Source: Spizellomyces punctatus DAOM BR117 (lineage: Eukaryota). From it: a stretch of 64,000 nt of DNA. The notes under the pieces were generated by a model. That model ran no database searches, was not told the DNA's origin, and saw only the letters and a list, made by a program, of their open reading frames with translations. The position numbers and the translations under genes are program-made. Below, in pieces: positions 8,172 to 61,227 of this stretch (positions are counted from its first letter, which is position 1; every line of letters starts with the position of its first letter). The stretch lies in NCBI GenBank assembly GCA_000182565.2, contig KQ257462.1. The stretch is one strand, 5' to 3'.

Positions 8172-8858
8172 GTTGCAGTGGATCGCTCTCGCGTCGGGTC
8201 AGTCCGCCGTCTCTGTTAACGCTGTTCCAAGCTTACGAGACCGCCATCACTTCTTCCACGTGACTTTCAATGCTGGTCCTGTCAAAAGACCAACTGAAGT
8301 CGTAGCAAGATCAGTTGGCTGCGTTCATACTGATGTTCTTGTAACCGTTGCTGAAAATGCCTTCTAGACGCTATAACAATATTCTTGCAGTATCGGCTTT
8401 TGCAATGTGCGCTTTAATGTGCGTTTTGGTTTAACCTTGTCAAGGTGTTCAAGTTTCCATGTGCTTACCATAGCAAAAAAAAAGGTCACAAAGCAGATCA
8501 TGCCCAAACTTGAGGATATTCCTGCGCAAACGCAATTACATGAGGTATAGATTTGCATGCATCTTCCATTTGGCCAACCATTGCGAGGGTGATGCAGAAA
8601 GAGCAAGCTCTGTGATTACGTAGGCGTTTGGTTTTCTCCTGCACGCGTGCGTCATCGAAAAATTGTTGTGCTTGGGCCAACCGCTCATCCTCTCCGCCTT
8701 TTTTTGCACTGCAGCAATATATTTTCATTTTTGAAATCGGCGTTTGCAAATCGTCCATTGGCGAGAAAGTACTTTTCAAACGTACGTTGCGATCTTACTA
8801 GTCCCAGTGACAGACGTTTGAGAGGCCTTGCCCATCTGAAGCCGACGTCCCTTTCACG

Positions 8859-40016: not shown

Positions 40017-43000
40017 ATGGACGATTCGACTCTCAAGTCGTTGTCGATAGTACTCCCCACCACCAAAAGCGTTATAAAATTCGAGCCTGCCTTCTCTCCT
40101 ACAGTGAAAAACTACACAGCTTACGTAGCATCAGATACGGAAGGTAAAGGAAATATACCGACGGACGGGCTCTGTATGCTCTCTAGCTGAGTAGTTGCTG
40201 GAAAAAGCCCATTCTTTTCTGTAGCATTGCAAGTCCGCGCAAGCGCCAACGAGCCAGATGCATTTTGCCAGATTCTCAAAGCAGATGCCGCCCAATGTGT
40301 GTATTCATTGTCGTCGCATTGACATTCGGCTGCATTTCCGATTGGTTGAACCTGACTGGTTTCCATTAGCGGTTGCCATCAAAGAAGGGACAAGTGACAT
40401 AGAGATTAAAGTCGATGCACCTGACGGTTCATCCTCTCTTTATGTTATTCAAGTTTACAGACCAAGTGGTGCGCTTCTGGTGGCTTTTGCGGTTACAATA
40501 AACGCTAAGGCTATGTGTATCACATTCCTCCAGGTAGCGATGCCACGCTGAAGTACATAACTTTCTCCGCTGGTTCCCTCGTACCAGAGTTCCATCGATC
40601 AGAAACCACTTACCTTTTGCATGTCGGTAAGATGTATTTGAGTTGATGTATCATGTCGTTTGCACATAGTCAACGGCCTCCGTTCGCCAGATTCGTGCGT
40701 ACGATCTGTTCTCTGCTCCGCTACGCCACTGAATCCAAAGTCAAAGGTTCAGCTCGACCCAGAGGCAAAGCTGTTCTTGGGGGACACCCCAATTTCAATT
40801 CAAGTGACATCAGCTCATGGAGACAACACTAATACATATCAAATCATCGCTAGAAAAGGTATGCTCATAACGGAAAGAACTTGTTGGCTGATGTCAGGTT
40901 ATCTGGGGCTGTTTGATAAACTTTTAGCATCGCAGAAAAGCAAGGATCTCGTCCAGCATTAGCTCCAGTCGCCAGCATATCCCGGGAGTCAATATGTTCT
41001 GCATGCGGATACCTTGTATTTCGACCTCGTACATGCAACGAGGTGGATGATAAGACGTGCGCACATAGATTCTGCTTCACTTGCCTAGACCTTTTGAAGC
41101 TAGAGTTCAACGCTGGGCATCGATCGGGGGAATATCCTTGCCCATTGTGTCCTAGAACCGCTCAAAAGATCTGGAGCAGTAACCCATCAATTGATGTACC
41201 TATGGAAGCTCAATTAGCCGCAGTCCAAGTTGCATGCCTGTTTGCAGCATACGGATGTGAGCAGCAACTGGACATGATGGGTGTATATGATCACGCACAA
41301 TCGTGTACATTTCATCCCGTCTCGTGCTCAGAGTGCGAAATGTCGAATTGCGTCAAGCCTGTTGAAATACTCGATGGTAAACACAAGGAGGCATGCACAA
41401 CCTCATGTGTATGTGGACGCAAAATTAGGGTGGCAGATCGGCCCCGGCACAGTCAGATGTGTCCAAGTAAATTTGAACTGCCTTCAAAGACGGTAGTCAC
41501 ACAATCGTCTTGGGAATCCGCGTTGGTGCGGAGACAGAGATCGCCAAATGACTCGGCTGGGTGCATTAAAGCTGCTGAGGAGAACAAAAAGAATTATTTG
41601 AGAAGCTTGATCGCGGCTAAAGAAGCGGCAGCGACAGAATCTTTCGGTCAGAGCCAGCAAAGGCCTGACAATGACATTTTAGAGGAAATGGCAAATCTAT
41701 ATGCGACAGCTATTGCATTGCAACATGAAGCATGCCTGGGTGGAGGGGCAGATGAAAACTTGCACCTCAACTTGGGCCTGGTGCTCGAAGAGAGTTGTGC
41801 TTCCAAAGAATTATTCCCGATATCCGTTGCAACCGAAACAGGCCCGAGTGAAAATGATCTCGCTCAGGAAAGCTTCATGGCAGATGAAGTAGACGGCTTG
41901 CTTGAGCAACTCGGAATTGCTCGTTCGGCTAGTGATGCTGTTAAAATTAGAGCCATCGAATCAGAGTATCAGCGCCTCAAGGGAGAAGGGCTCTCAGACA
42001 AGGTAAGCAGCGTCGCATCCAGATGTTCTCGCATTGTATTGTTTGATCTCATTGGTTCTCATTATAAGGCCGCCGAAGTGCAGGGGCTGTATGCCTGGAA
42101 GATTAAGCAGGTCGCAGCCACAAGCGGGACTAGTGGCTGGAATCAAGGACATACGAAAATTGGTATTACTACATATTCATCCAATGTCTTGGAAAAGTTT
42201 CAGCATGCCGTAGCTATCAATCCAGAAAATCCATACGCAAAGTAAGTTTGAGTGTTTGACTCTGCAAAGCACGACCTGGACTGACATCCACATCGTCCAG
42301 TTTTCACTTGGGCCGCGCACTTTTGAAAGCGCGTCAGATACCCGAAGCCACAAAGTATCTGCGAACTGCCGTGGGACACAAACCATTGTTCAAGAATGCG
42401 CGAATGCTTTTGGTGAGTGATTCGAGTATCGCAGTTCTCAGATAACATGGGTCCTCAATCAATATCTTACTAGGGCTTAGCACTGCTCTCATCCGAATCG
42501 CCGACAGAGGACATTTTGCTCGAGGGGATAGAGTATCTTCAAGAGGCTGTACGAGAACACTCTGCCCTGCTGTGGCAAGATGTCAAGGACCGCAATCTCA
42601 AGCGTGCATCACAGATACCCTCCCAGATGCTGGTAGATTCTTTTATGGAGCTGACAAACCCTTTTCTTCCTTCGGCCTATGTGGCACTCGCCAGCGGCTA
42701 CAGCATGCAAGGCCTTCCTCAGCAAGCTGCAGAAGTCTTGACGGATCTTATTTATCTCATCCCAGACACTCTCCGTCGTTTATCTCGTCGGAGTGCAACA
42801 GCCGCAAGGCTCGCGTTTATAATGTCTGAAGCACAACGAGACCTCATTAAAGTTCTCCCGCATTGCTCCGGACCAGTGCCAAAATTGAGGGCAGAGATTA
42901 TCAGCGGATCGTTGCTGGATGTAGCGAGAAGATATATGTCGCTGTATGCCAATGTCGAAGGCATTGAGGGTCTCAAATGTGACACCATGGAAAGCATTGT

Positions 43001-45718
43001 GCAAACGCTGGTTGCCGTTCATCCGAGGAAAGCAAAATTCCTAACAGCTCTGGGGTTCGCACAATTGGATCAGTATGACAAGAATCCAATTTATGACCGA
43101 AGTCCGGCCAAGTTGGGCGAAGCGGAACAATCCTTCTTGGCCGCGATAGAGGCAGAAGGAGGGCATGACCCATCACAAGATGCCCGCCTTCCCCCAGGAT
43201 TAGTGAGTAGTCAAAAGTGGTGGATAGCCTATCAACAAGAGATGACATCAATGCAATGGAAAATATCTTCCCATGACGCGAGCAAGGTAGCGCACCAGCC
43301 AGTTGCTGGCAAAGCACCAGCTGCAGGGAAAACCACACCGCTTCGCTCAAAAGATGCAAAAATTGCCAATCCCAAAGTGCCGGCTCCAGTAAGCAAGGCA
43401 AAGATTGAAACTGCTGGCGGAAATAAGAAACCTACACCGTTAGCAAAGGGAAGAGGTGTCGCTATCAGTAGTAAACCAGCCCGATAGATACTGAATATAT
43501 GTCCAGTCAAAGAAATTCCAATAAGGATTGAGATCGAAGTTTGATTTTATTTAGCAGAGATTCAGCTCCCAATGACATCTTCCGGTTTCCTGGAGATGCC
43601 TTGGTGCGCTGCAGAGTGAGTATTTCTGATACCAGCGCAACCCACTAAAGCGCACATACATCCCTTCCAAATACTATATATCTAGTAGAGACGGACAGGC
43701 TTGCCCATGGAGGACTTCATGAACAGAGACTTGACGTTCTGCCAGTTCTTCTTCAAGAGAGAGACCAAGAAGTTGATGGCCAACATAGTGTTGTTGACAA
43801 GCTGGTCCTCAGTCATCTGGACGTGGCCAACGGCAACACCGAGGCAGAGCACCTTCTTCAACTGGAACTTGATGGTCGACTTGATCTCAACCACCTTGTC
43901 CTCCAAGTTGTCGTTGTGGGTCACGGGGGTGGGGAACTTACCGGCCTTGGAAAGACCGGGACCGAGCAAACGGGGGATCTGCTTGATCAAGGCTTCAGAG
44001 GCAAGGAAGGCATCGTACTTCTTGGCGAGCTTCTTGATGAGCTTCTTGTTCTTGTTGAGCTTCTTCAAGTCATCAACGGACATGAAGTCAAGACCGATGG
44101 ACTTGGCCTGGTCGATGTGGTGCTGGTCAGCCAAAATGCAGAGCTTCATCTTGGGCTTGGGGACATTGGGAAGCCTATGGAGATGTCTAATAAGCTCCAA
44201 TTCCAACCGAGAACAGTAGATTGCCTATACATACTTGATGGTACCAGAGAAACGCTTGTCACGCTGAGGGTCGTAGTTCTTGAGACCAATTTGGAGCTCG
44301 ACGGTCTCAACGAACTTACGGGGCTTCTCCTCCGTAGCGTAGGTGAGAAGCTCACGGGTAGCCTGACGCACGGCACTGGCTTGAACCTTGCTGTAAGAGT
44401 TGCAAGTACAGAGGTCAGATCTCGGTTCATGCCATCATTTTTCGTCATGTGGTTGGCCTTCATCCGTCGTCCATTGCCTCCTCTTTTTCATTCGCTGTTC
44501 ATCCACTCATCCATCCATCCATCCATCTCATACATTTCCCAATCAATCACCATACTGACCTGGACATTCTGTCGAAACTTGCTGAACCTCTGCTGTTGTT
44601 CGACCGTGAACGGATGGGAAAGATCCAAAATGCGTTGGGTCGCCCACCAAAGCAAAGCAGCAATGTCACGTGACTCACTAAACTTGTGGCAGACCGCGAT
44701 CCGATCGTGATTGGATAATCACCTAATTCCGATGAAGCAGACCACCGCAAAGGCAGCGCCCAGCGCGCGAACGCCGACAGTCGCGGGAAAGCCCAAAGTC
44801 ACAGAGTCGAAGAGTGGTCCTGGAGGGGGTTCAGGTCTTCGTGACAAGGCAGCATCATCTCGGCCCGCTTCCGCGGCTGGAAAGAAGAATGTGGACAAGA
44901 CCGTGCCAGCGGTTGGCAAAGCACCTTCCACTGTTGCTGCCACCAAGTCCGCGGCTCGCTCGACACCCACCGCTATTTCCCGCACACCTCTAATAAAGGC
45001 TTCAAGTAACTTACCGGAAGAACCTTCGTCGAATGTATCACCGGCTTCTGTCCAGGAACCAGCAGAAGTGCAGCAAGTCGGCAATATCAATGTCCAGGAG
45101 AAAAGCTTTGAGCCTCGCATCGGTCTTGCCCGAGTACTCACTCGGCGTTTAGCTCTAACGCAGGATACAAACACCCTTTCGACATCCGGATCTGTCGATA
45201 CTACCTCACTCAAGGCTGACATTGAAAACTATTACAGAGAAGCAATTGGCCTTTGCCCTCGGTACCACGATGCATACATTGAGCTTGGCGGTTTTCTCGA
45301 ACAACATACTTCACTCGTCGCTGCAGCTGATCTTTACGCTACCTTCCCTTTCGAGCGAAATACGGACCCAAAGTTACCGGAAACGAGTCAGGACGACCTC
45401 TATATTGATTCAGAGATTACACGGATTTTTATGAAACTGAAGCGGTTTAGGGATCCGGTGCTCATTCGTAGTTTGATTGCGGAGGGAAGGGCAATGGGGA
45501 TCGGTGTGCTTGGAAAGAATATTGAGACGTTGGACGCAGCTGGGGAAAATAAAACGTTGATGGAGGTGTACGCGGGAGTTAACCGAAAGGCATTGGATGA
45601 TGTAAGTTGCACACGAGATGGAATGTTAACTATCCAAGTTGGACGCAGCTCATCATTGGCCCTTTCCCTTGATCAGCCTGAAATGGTGGCGTTCTTCAAG
45701 ATAAAGTATTGGATATGA
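40017..45718 (+). CDS. Large uncharacterised protein: two cadherin-like beta-sandwich repeats, RING/TRAF-type Zn fingers, TPR-like helices; last coding block probably joined across the RPL1 gene
   Basis: STLKSLSI...[14 protein letters not shown] and ATLKYITF...PEF...Y repeats; CSAC...CAHRFCFTC...[14 protein letters not shown]...HAQSC; TPR-like [23 protein letters not shown]-rich linker on both sides of RPL1. Confidence 0.65.
43682..44567 (-). CDS. RPL1: 60S ribosomal protein L1/L10a (uL1), 3 exons
   Basis: [74 protein letters not shown]. Confidence 0.98.
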
Positions 45719-57576: not shown

Positions 57577-58321
57577 GAGAAAACACCTCAAGTGCGTGTG
57601 TGCCCGTTGCAGTTGGAAAAAGGACAATGAGCACTTGCAACAGTCGTTATAGTAGGAGAAGCAGCAGAAAGGTACGGCGGCGTCTTTTGAACCAGGGTGT
57701 GTAAAAACGAAACGCAAATACAAAAAGCGACCAGCAAGCCAATGAGGAGAGAGCGATGCGATAAAAGACAAGGTGAAAAACACCAAGCAAGTAATAAATA
57801 AAGACAACGACAGGAGGAAACAAGGACAACGAAGGAGAAGAACCAGGAGCAAACACAGGGCAATTCCCAACACGTCAGCAGAACACACACACCACCAACA
57901 AGCCCGTATTTCACGTGACATGGTCAGTGATCGACATTCTCGCTTTATACAAGAAGTGCTGCCAGGACGAAAAAGAAGGTAAAAGTGGAAAGAACAAGAG
58001 TGAGATAGAAAGTGAATACATATGTTAATAAGTGATCATGAAAGAATGCCATTGGGGAGGATGCGAGGGCGACAAAAACAAGAACTTCTTACAACAGCAA
58101 TCCGATGGCCATACCAAGAGGAAGCACCCTATCTAACCAACAACACTGCTATTTGGGTGTGCATTTGATAAGTCATAAAGAAGCCTCACTTACGGAGGAT
58201 CTAACAATATGCGCCAGACAAGAGTAAATAGTGATGGAGTGTGCACATTGTATGTGGGCCATGCAATGTGACTGTCCGCCCGAGGTTTGAGCTTTGAGTG
58301 ACTGTCTTGTAAGCGGGACTG

Positions 58322-58436
58322 AAAAAAAGTCGTCTGAAGCAAAGGATGATCGAGGATCCCAGGACTCGAACCTGGCAATCTCATCATTCTAACTTGCCGA
58401 CAAGGACATTCCATTCCACTCGGCCATGGAACGACC
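58322..58436 (-). ncRNA. Unidentified ~108 nt Pol III-type small RNA (A box, B box, terminal stem, T7 terminator); not a tRNA cloverleaf
   Basis: A box TGGCCGAGTGG, B box GGTTCGAGTCC within hairpin CCAGG/CCTGG, 5' GTCGT pairs with 3' ACGAC immediately before TTTTTTT. Confidence 0.7.
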
Positions 58437-58758
58437 TTAGCAGGCATATTGATTCTCTAATTCAGCTCCTTGGAGAGAACAGGCAAAAGAGAGAGAGTGT
58501 GTGTGAGAGGAGACCGATCGAGAAGCCTAGGATTCGCTCTCCTGATGCACACATACAAGCGATTCACCCATTATGCCACGACCCATACGACATCGATAGA
58601 TTATAATGAATTATATGACCGATCCTAATAAGTGCCAAAAAGAAGCTGTAACGATTTGCAAGTAATCAAATTGGCACTTTCTCCTTGCTTTTAGGAAAAG
58701 CATTTCACACACCCATACGCATGGGCATCTTGCAAAAAGTTCTGTTTGTTCGCTATCA

Positions 58759-58834
58759 TCGGGCTTACCAGGATTTTGAACCCGGTATTCTCCTGATCCA
58801 TCACCAGGCGCCTTAACCATTAGACCATAACCCG
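58759..58834 (-). tRNA. Atypical or pseudo tRNA (anticodon position ATG)
   Basis: Cloverleaf CGGGTTA / D arm GTCT-AGGC with TGGTCTAATGG / CCTGG-TGATGGA-TCAGG / CCGGG-TTCAAAAT-CCTGG / TAAGCCCG; T5 at 58734-58738. Defects: G at position 33, 8 nt T loop, bulged acceptor stem. Confidence 0.7.
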
Positions 58835-59207
58835 CAATTGTTTTCAACCTGCTGTTGACAAAACTTGTGAGTGACCTCAGAATTCAGAGCATGACGGCTG
58901 AGTATGACGATTTGAATACTATGCTGGTAGTTGCCATAGAGCATGTAAAAAGTCTGACATATTGAGTACAGATTTGATATAATGCCTATGAAAGGGTACG
59001 GGGATAAGAAACTTGAAAATATCGATAGTGTGGCGACTCACAAGAGTATAGGCCACATGTAAATGTCCATAAGTAGTAATAGTAATATCTGTCCTGTTGG
59101 TACTCGTAAAAAGAGAGAGTCAATACAATGTATAATTAGAGTGAGAGAGTGAGGGAGAGAGATGCTGCAAGTCTTTAGTTATTATTATTCTTATTAACAA
59201 AAGAGTT

Positions 59208-59241
59208 GCTCTCTCTCTCTCTCTCTCTCCACTCTCTCTCT
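59208..59241 (+). repeat. (CT)n microsatellite upstream of the C2H2 gene
   Basis: ctctctctct... run with one interruption. Confidence 0.9.
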
Positions 59242-59484
59242 CACAGAGACAAAGACTTACAAAATAAATCCCTGCCTCGCTCATTCTCATTACGTAATAA
59301 ATTCCATAATAATAAATCAATTTCATAGCCACCCTTATATCTACAACTATTGCCGTTTTTCTCCTCTTTTTTTATTTCTCACATGAAATATTTTATTTTT
59401 TTTTTCTTTTTGCATTTTTGACTTTCCCACGCACTCTCTCACTTGGTTTTTTTTTGGTTTTTTCATTTTATTCACTCTTTGGTC

Positions 59485-61227
59485 ATGGCTCTTCCTGGTT
59501 TGTCGTCGTCGTCGTCGTCTTTGTCTTCGTCATCACCACCATCTTCTTGCAAGGTGGATGATAGGGCACAACGCCATGAACGCAACACCCAACTAGACAT
59601 TGCATCATCCTCCCCAAAGAGAGCTAGGCTTCATTTAGACATCAAGAGACTAGATTCTTACATGCCTTCTTCTTCTCCTCGTTCTTCCTCGTCTTCGCCT
59701 TCTCCCCACGTCTCCCTCTCTCCCACTGCCATGGACTTGCCGCCGCCATCATCATCATCACAAGAGCAACAGTCGATGACAGCTGCTGCAACACCAACGA
59801 TAGCAGCAGCAGCAACTCCAAGCAGCGCTGGTGGGAATAATGGTGGCGCTCCGCTCTATCCCCACCGGATGCTGCCTCCCGTCCTCTTTCATCCTTCTCA
59901 ACCGCCCCTCCTCCCACAACCACCATCTCAACAACAACAACAACAACAGCAAACATCACACTCGCAACCGCCAGAACAACACCAACAACAAGAGTATCAT
60001 GGGAGTAACTTGTCGGACATGTACCATCATCACCATCCCTCACCACACCATTCCCACAACTCCCCGTATCACACGTCAGAGCCCACAAGCGCTCATGGAG
60101 GATCGCCGCATCTACCCTTTCCCCCGCCCCTGCCTTACAATACACTGCCCACCCCACATCAGTCCCCTGGATCTGGTTATTATCCCTCCTTTCATGGGAC
60201 CTCGGCGCACGGTCCGCCGCCGCCGCAAGCGCAACCGCCGCGCCTAAACTATCTGTTGCAAAATCCGTCCTTTCGCCCATCCTTTCAGCAACCACCTTCA
60301 CCACAGCCACCACAACATCAGCAACAAGAACAGCACCATCACCACGCACATCGCCAACACCATCATCAGCCAAGTTACCACTCTTACAGCAACAACCACA
60401 ATAATGCCATCTCTTCGCAGCCGCAGAGTCCTGCCGGTTCAGAATCGTCTCTAGCCAGTCCAGGTCCAGGAAGTGCACTGGTTGGGCACGGTCCGCGATT
60501 CCCTCCCACTCCTCCTACACAATCCCCGCTGTCGGTCCAATCACCCTCCGTTCCGCTCTTGTCTCCAGGCTTGTACGCTCATCCGTCGGGTGGCTATGTG
60601 CACATTCACGGTCCACCACAACAACCGACCGCTGAACAACAACAACAGTCGTCCACGATGGAACATGCCCCGCACATGCAATCCATGCATCACCATCATC
60701 ATCATCAGCAGCATCATCATCATCAAGACTGGCGACCACCGTCACCCAATAGGATACATCCAGAAGAGCGAACTCATTCGCCCATGATGATCTCTGAGCA
60801 GGATGGACGCATGCCACCACCGCCTCCCCAACACAACTACGTGCAGCCGTATACTGACGCTATATCCGACATGGACAAGCAGCAAAGGATGTTTAAATGT
60901 CCTACACCATACTGCTCAAAGGTAAGCAAAAGCAGAGTTGTGCAAGACATGTACGCAAACTGACTATATTGTTTAAAGATTTACAAGAATGCAAACGGAC
61001 TGAAATACCATCTTGAGCGGGGATCTTGCGAAATGGAATGGGCATCTGGGGACGAGTACGCCGATTTGTCCATGCTCAACATTAAGGTGGCCCATCGACC
61101 GTACTGGTGTCGCGTAGCCGGGTGCGGCAAAAAGTACAAGAATCTGAATGGCCTAAAGTACCATGCAAAGGCCGCTCACCCAGAGTTGGATTTTGGAAAA
61201 GAGGTCAAGGGGCATTTGCGATGGTAG
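59485..61227 (+). CDS. Sfp1-like C2H2 zinc-finger transcription factor with long P/Q/H/S-rich N-terminus
   Basis: FKCPTPYCSK-IYKNANGLKYHLERGSC and RPYWCRVAGCGKKYKNLNGLKYHAKAAH; intron ~60922-60978. Confidence 0.88.

Follow-up and report, generated by a model that had tools for sequence, protein, structure and literature searches.

This locus raises the question of whether a short minus-strand unit with internal Pol III signals encodes a new small RNA or is what remains of a tRNA gene. A sequence-only reading had proposed a novel non-coding RNA, closed by a terminal stem and laid out like a vault RNA. The minus-strand sequence quoted in that reading lies exactly at 58436-58322 of the window (the whole 64-kb stretch of DNA that was analysed), with the A box, B box and T7 run in place. 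The explanation favoured here, to which a moderate degree of confidence is attached, is that this unit (Elem1) is a nuclear tRNA-gene relic. Three such tRNA-derived units, all diverged, are taken to share this strand, and the Pol III signals of Elem1 have stayed intact. The other two units are called Elem2 and Elem3 (Table 1).

Table 1. Positions of the three tRNA-like units, their signals, the predicted hairpins of Elem1 and the putative gene starts on either side.
Feature	Position	Strand	Remarks
Elem1, tRNA-derived unit	58322..58436	(-)	115 nt, from the putative 5' end to the last base of T7
Elem1 A box TGGCCGAGTGG, D-loop motif	58426-58416	(-)	Fits consensus T-R-G-C-N-N-A-R-T-G-G
Elem1 perfect T arm CCAGG-TTCGAGT-CCTGG	58375-58359	(-)	Contains B box GGTTCGAGTCC, 58372-58362
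Elem1 stretch between T stem and T run	58329..58358	(-)	30 nt; read by homology with Elem2
Elem1 T7 run, Pol III terminator	58328-58322	(-)	Read from sequence
Elem1 predicted 5' hairpin, stem CGUUCCAU/AUGGAAUG, A box in loop	58404..58436	(-)	33 nt
Elem1 predicted long hairpin extending the T arm, AUGAUGAG with CUCGAUCAU, one bulge	58343..58390	(-)	From folding
Elem2, near-cloverleaf tRNA-like unit	58834-58760	(-)	ARAGORN 'tRNA-His (atg)'; Rfam tRNA 26.2 bits
Elem2 T5 run	58738-58734	(-)	29 nt past the Elem2 T stem
Elem3, probable third and more decayed copy	~58588-58484	(-)	Between Elem2 and Elem1
Elem3 A-box consensus match TGGCATAATGG	58578-58568	(-)	From pattern search
Elem3 T4 run	58485-58488	(-)	37 nt past the T-arm remnant
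Putative gene start, ATG	57496-57494	(-)	Read from ORFs and ATG positions
Putative gene start, ATG	59662	(+)	In frame with the 513-codon ORF 59422-60963

Read from 5' to 3', Elem1 consists of GGTCGTTCCA, the A box, 40 nt of other sequence, the T arm, 30 nt ending in a terminal GACGAC, and the T7 run. The A box is followed by the B box after 43 nt, and the T7 run begins 33 nt after the B box and 30 nt after the T stem. The 11-mers of both boxes have one exact match each in the 64-kb window. Five T-arm-like matches occur in the window, and only that of Elem1 has a G+C-rich canonical stem. Consensus searches of the window gave four A-box and two B-box matches, which form a single pair at the right spacing. 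No such pair appeared in 300 mononucleotide shuffles of the window, and the layout of the motifs in Elem1 is thus real rather than a product of chance. With an A box, a B box at permitted spacing and a downstream oligo-T, Elem1 has the complete set of a type-2 Pol III unit, and the Pol III layout described in the sequence-only reading stands. Lone consensus matches to one box, with no partner, were seen at 8576 (-), 31870 (+) and 21089 (+); the number of such matches is about that of the shuffles (means of 1.9 A boxes and 0.8 B boxes per window).

According to passages in PMC5356446, the stability of the TFIIIC-DNA complex is determined mainly by binding to the B box. The same passages state that termination needs only four to six T residues, depending on the species, and that yeast Pol III terminates efficiently at T7. 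They also describe two yeast tRNA-gene relics, ZOD1 and the YGR033C locus, which are occupied by the Pol III machinery, ZOD1 being transcribed weakly. Given this precedent, as far as those passages go, the intact A and B boxes and the T7 run of Elem1 suggest that it can probably still recruit TFIIIC and Pol III in the manner of ZOD1. ZOD1 (derived from tRNA-Ile) and YGR033C (derived from tDNA-Arg) are, like Elem1, former tRNA genes that keep internal Pol III promoter elements. The present case differs in grouping three relics, each decayed to a different degree, in another eukaryote.

Elem1 does not behave as a tRNA gene. In its default mode ARAGORN made no call on Elem1, its sole call in the window being Elem2, and Rfam at gathering thresholds returned nothing in the whole window. 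A functional tRNA is expected to form a cloverleaf scoring at or above the model threshold (RF00005, ARAGORN), and Elem1 falls short of this. A search of the segment against Rfam had been suggested in the sequence-only reading. Run at E ≤ 10 on 1.1 kb and on 141 nt (58310-58450), it gave no tRNA, vault or Y RNA match over Elem1; the 141-nt segment had three matches, none of them to vault RNA. The Rfam library includes vault and Y RNA families. The earlier statement that Elem1 is not a functional tRNA is thus borne out by both programs. It had been based in part on the failure of the 7 nt after the T arm to pair with the 5' end as an acceptor stem would. This is correct for GATCCTC when the 5' end is set as it was there. 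When the start is moved 4 nt upstream, five of the seven canonical acceptor positions pair with GATCCTC, which is not significant by itself and is consistent with a degraded acceptor stem.

A reading of Elem1 as a C/D box snoRNA was rejected because it has no CUGA D box downstream on the minus strand and its scores are at chance level. The C/D snoRNA matches of Rfam on Elem1 reach 11.8-12.8 bits against thresholds of 35-45, and these fragment matches are driven by a C-box-like AUGAUGA at 58387-58381 within the unit.

About 400 bp upstream of Elem1, on the same strand, Elem2 is still recognizable as tRNA-like and folds de novo into a cloverleaf. Its Rfam tRNA score of 26.2 bits lies below the threshold of 29, and it has several oddities, namely an anticodon loop UGAUGGA, a G at position 33 and a T loop of 8 nt. 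Elem2 is probably a pseudogene rather than a His tRNA with an A34 anticodon, and the ARAGORN 'tRNA-His(ATG)' beside Elem1 should not be counted as a real tRNA. Just upstream of Elem2, a weak Rfam match to DdR16, a Dictyostelium C/D snoRNA, was seen at 58842-58923 (-). It scores 17.7 bits against a threshold of 70 (E 5.8), with two CUGA motifs and no clear C box, and is probably due to chance. Elem3 has lost the 5' half of its T arm; the remnant is followed by CTCGATC, which is found at the same place in Elem1.

The kinship of Elem1 and Elem2 can be judged in a register fixed by the T arm. Among the positions flanking this arm, 17 of 28 are identical (p ~2e-4), with 9/15 before the arm and 8/13 after it. 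Both units have CGAT-S-AT, which spans the discriminator and the first bases of the trailer. The distance from the T stem to the T run is 30 nt in Elem1, 29 nt in Elem2 and 37 nt in Elem3. The sequence-only reading had counted about 30 extra nucleotides after the T arm as a departure from tRNA. These nucleotides are present, but the agreement with Elem2 and the distance to the T run indicate an acceptor strand and trailer rather than a new domain. By homology with Elem2, the first 8 nt of the stretch would be what is left of the acceptor 3' strand (GATCCTC) followed by the discriminator G, and the other 22 nt or so would be a 3' trailer inherited with them. In D loop, variable loop and T arm, the units may resemble eukaryotic tRNA-Arg genes.

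The relic reading is weakened by the fact that the similarity of the units is weak when judged against the whole window. Searches with single units by nhmmer or blastn against the window gave E values of 2.6-9.4. Leave-one-out profiles recovered the omitted unit in two of three runs (E 8.3 and 6.8). Elem3 has the weakest statistical support (E 2.6-7.3 singly), and its place in the cluster rests mostly on location, strand and order. Its local alignment with Elem2 scores 36, against a mean of 24.4 and a maximum of 46 in shuffles. In the window (128 kb of search space), however, the best same-strand matches of Elem3 outside itself are Elem1 (E 2.6) and Elem2 (E 5.1). It is this arrangement, in which the best matches of Elem3 are units within 300 bp, in the right order and on the right strand, that makes the kinship convincing. 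In addition, two of the four A-box matches of the window fall within one 260-bp stretch of the cluster.

Further copies were sought in the window, in contigs of one sample and in metagenomes. Searches by blastn, nhmmer and a three-unit profile found no fourth copy in the 64-kb window, the next best match having an E value of 2.7. When the contigs of four runs from one sample (34.2 million letters) were compared with 58150-58950 at 80% likeness, a setting blind to copies less than 80% alike, such as the three local units, a single contig was recovered, the locus itself, with no differences; a lack of coverage from the other runs carries no weight as evidence. Two element-specific gapped patterns had 0 matches each in metagenomes.

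Several lines of evidence carry the relic reading. The A and B boxes of Elem1 are the D-loop and T-loop sequences of a tRNA, and they occur as a pair far beyond chance. The strand of Elem1 also carries, 400 bp upstream, a recognizable tRNA-like cloverleaf in Elem2, which agrees with Elem1 in fixed register outside the generic T arm. Between the two lies Elem3, which has an A-box match and CTCGATC in common with Elem1. Tested as a relic, which calls for tRNA ancestry together with lost tRNA function, Elem1 shows the first in its motifs and its likeness to Elem2 and the second in its failure against tRNA models. Ordinary eukaryotic tRNA pseudogenes likewise have D-loop and T-loop motifs, a broken cloverleaf and sub-threshold scores in tRNA finders. 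Elem1 differs from them in its flawless A and B boxes and strong terminator, which are kept despite strong divergence elsewhere.

The history of the cluster would most likely have begun when a tRNA gene, its 3' trailer of about 22 nt and its T run were duplicated locally as one piece, and decay of the copies would have followed. This decay would have been unequal, with Elem2 still a cloverleaf and Elem3 deprived of half of its T arm. In Elem1, small insertions ahead of the A box and within the D/anticodon region would have destroyed the cloverleaf, and the 5' acceptor strand appears to have been scrambled. Elem1 may still recruit TFIIIC and Pol III, in which case a transcript of about 115-125 nt is predicted. 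Such a transcript could not be aminoacylated and would probably be unstable or low-level, as with ZOD1 and YGR033C.

Turnover of tRNA genes is known to leave behind relics and pseudogenes that keep Pol III promoter elements. As a relic, Elem1 matters little, and the locus should be annotated as a tRNA-like pseudogene cluster rather than a new class of RNA. Elem1 would count as a tRNA gene reused as a new small RNA only if it proved to give a stable RNA, which is considered unlikely.

Plain neutral decay does not account easily for every feature of Elem1. The copies are only about 60-70% alike, yet the 17-nt T arm and the 11-nt A box of Elem1 are perfect, which may reflect either a recent origin or selection acting on the promoter elements. 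A stable 5' hairpin, a terminal complement abutting the T run and one compensatory pair also speak against neutral decay. These same features, with the exact A box, perfect B box and T7 kept despite heavy divergence from the neighbours, are what can be said for a functional, lineage-specific, tRNA-derived Pol III small RNA. Such an RNA, folded either as two hairpins or as a closed stem around a tRNA-like module in vault- or Y-like layout, would act via a protein partner. This alternative is judged improbable, and the predicted folding of Elem1 bears on it directly.

The minimum-energy fold of Elem1 (-40.6 kcal/mol) has two hairpins and no closed ring, and as a whole it is only mildly better than those of shuffled sequences (z -2.37; 5/200 as good). 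The 5' hairpin, which holds the A box in its loop, stands out more clearly (MFE -13.8 kcal/mol, z -3.13), with 1 of 200 shuffles as good. The 3' domain of 74 nt folds at -24.9 kcal/mol (z -1.91; 8/200 shuffles as good). In the long hairpin that extends the T arm, one base pair has undergone a double compensatory change, G-C to C-G, between Elem1 and Elem2. Two further pairs are disrupted, and in Elem2 these bases belong to the anticodon stem.

The two ends of Elem1 had been said to pair right at the terminator. The complementarity exists, GGTCGTT and GACGACT matching at 7/7 positions with two G-U pairs, but the pairing is not what folding predicts. Each pair of the terminal stem has an ensemble probability of 0.0013-0.0018, and forcing the stem gives -37.0 instead of -40.6 kcal/mol, a cost of 3.6. 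In random sequence, a 7/7 stem arose in 13% of trials when the 3' strand was free to take any place in the trailer, against 1.1% when it had to abut the T run. The terminal stem is thus not the preferred fold and may have arisen by chance. Transcription by Pol III in model eukaryotes begins a few bases upstream of the mature tRNA 5' end, which would probably put the 5' strand of the stem inside the transcript and not at its true end. Neither of the two predicted hairpins, nor the terminal stem, recurs in Elem2 or Elem3; this makes the terminal stem and the 5' hairpin look like incidental features of one decaying copy and not a conserved design. No Rfam family was matched at a meaningful score. 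The earlier proposal of a novel non-coding RNA with a closing stem is not supported by these results; Elem1 has two diverged tRNA-like relatives within about 400 bp upstream, and they lack this stem.

The suggested link to vault RNAs fares no better. Vault RNAs of metazoans and the vtRNA of trypanosomes resemble Elem1 in their length of about 100 nt, their internal A and B boxes, their oligo-U terminus and the capacity of their two ends to pair. This is only a generic Pol III layout, however, and tRNA ancestry accounts for the boxes of Elem1; folding does not predict the terminal stem, and Rfam gave no vault match at E ≤ 10. Among the translations of 44 of the 48 ORFs of at least 160 aa in the window, none matched a vault, MVP or TROVE family, and the vault-protein scan of these 44 ORFs gave only generic WD40 matches, far below the cut-off.

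A related possibility is that the relic has been exapted, giving a stable, lineage-specific, tRNA-like Pol III RNA of about 115 nt that serves as a protein-binding scaffold. From the predicted fold, the A box may lie in the loop of the strong 5' hairpin while the T loop caps the long 3' hairpin, or the ends may be closed in the style of Y or vault RNAs. The probability of this is rated low. If true, it would be a scaffold RNA in an organism without any such described RNA class.

Equally doubtful is the idea that the three units are copies of a tRNA-derived SINE, or of some other retroposed Pol III element, inserted near one another, perhaps because such an element targets Pol III genes. As in such SINEs, several diverged copies have a tRNA-like Pol III head and a short tail of about 22-30 nt unrelated to tRNA. 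The units end in T runs, however, and not in an A-rich or simple-repeat tail, and no target-site duplications were seen by eye at their flanks. In the limited data available, the units were seen side by side only, with no dispersed copies in the 64-kb window. Local duplication fits better with the confinement of all three to 520 bp of one strand. An LTR or primer-binding-site reading was also rejected, because a whole tRNA-like unit is present and not just its 3' 18 nt, and because the flanks of the units are dissimilar.

Elem1 might instead have been kept as DNA, as a TFIIIC-binding site of ETC or tDNA type that forms a boundary or insulator between divergent genes. The cluster lies in a stretch of about 2.2 kb flanked by two putative divergent genes. 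Elem1 has a perfect B box, and decay has affected its RNA body but spared the promoter elements. On the other hand, a T7 terminator and an A box would be superfluous for a site bound by TFIIIC only, and the flanking gene models rest only on ORFs and ATG positions. There is a small chance that this account is right. Should TFIIIC still bind Elem1, an effect of Elem1 on the two neighbouring divergent genes is conceivable.

A further alternative, nearly refuted, is that Elem1 still works as a tRNA gene once non-canonical insertions or introns are removed to restore a cloverleaf. In its favour, the T arm is perfect and the ends can pair as a 7-bp acceptor-like stem, with one base between this stem and the terminator. 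Against it, Elem1 offers no anticodon arm with a 5-bp stem and a 7-nt loop, and an intron would need more than the 3 nt inserted ahead of the A box. No Rfam tRNA match was obtained at E ≤ 10, and the intron and relaxed modes of ARAGORN, in which intron-containing or permuted forms were sought, yielded only chimeras of different units. These calls are 'tRNA-Ile(gat)' at 58350-58836 (-) with a 397-nt intron (intron mode) and 'tRNA-Arg(cct)' at 58350-58587 (-) with a 148-nt intron (relaxed threshold). Each stitches the 5' half of Elem2 or Elem3 to the T arm of Elem1 and is regarded as an artefact, which could nevertheless be taken up by automatic annotation.

The rest of the window contains ordinary eukaryotic protein genes, apparently split by short introns. 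The families found include MIF4G/MA3, cNMP-binding, ETF-QO, AMP-binding, F-box/WD40, HscB and Sec3, among others. No reverse transcriptase was found in the 44 scanned ORF translations, and the ORFs flanking the cluster matched no Pfam family. The intergenic stretch has GA/CT-rich low-complexity tracts and a long A/T-rich tract (59138-59244, 58488-58509 and 59356-59470), with a pure (CT)n run only at about 59208-59231; these tracts produce many low-complexity calls of short direct and inverted repeats. Elsewhere in the window, four consecutive long ORFs (441, 337, 353 and 335 codons) at 40920-45718 (+) have no Pfam match and could together be the exons of a single large gene, its family unknown.
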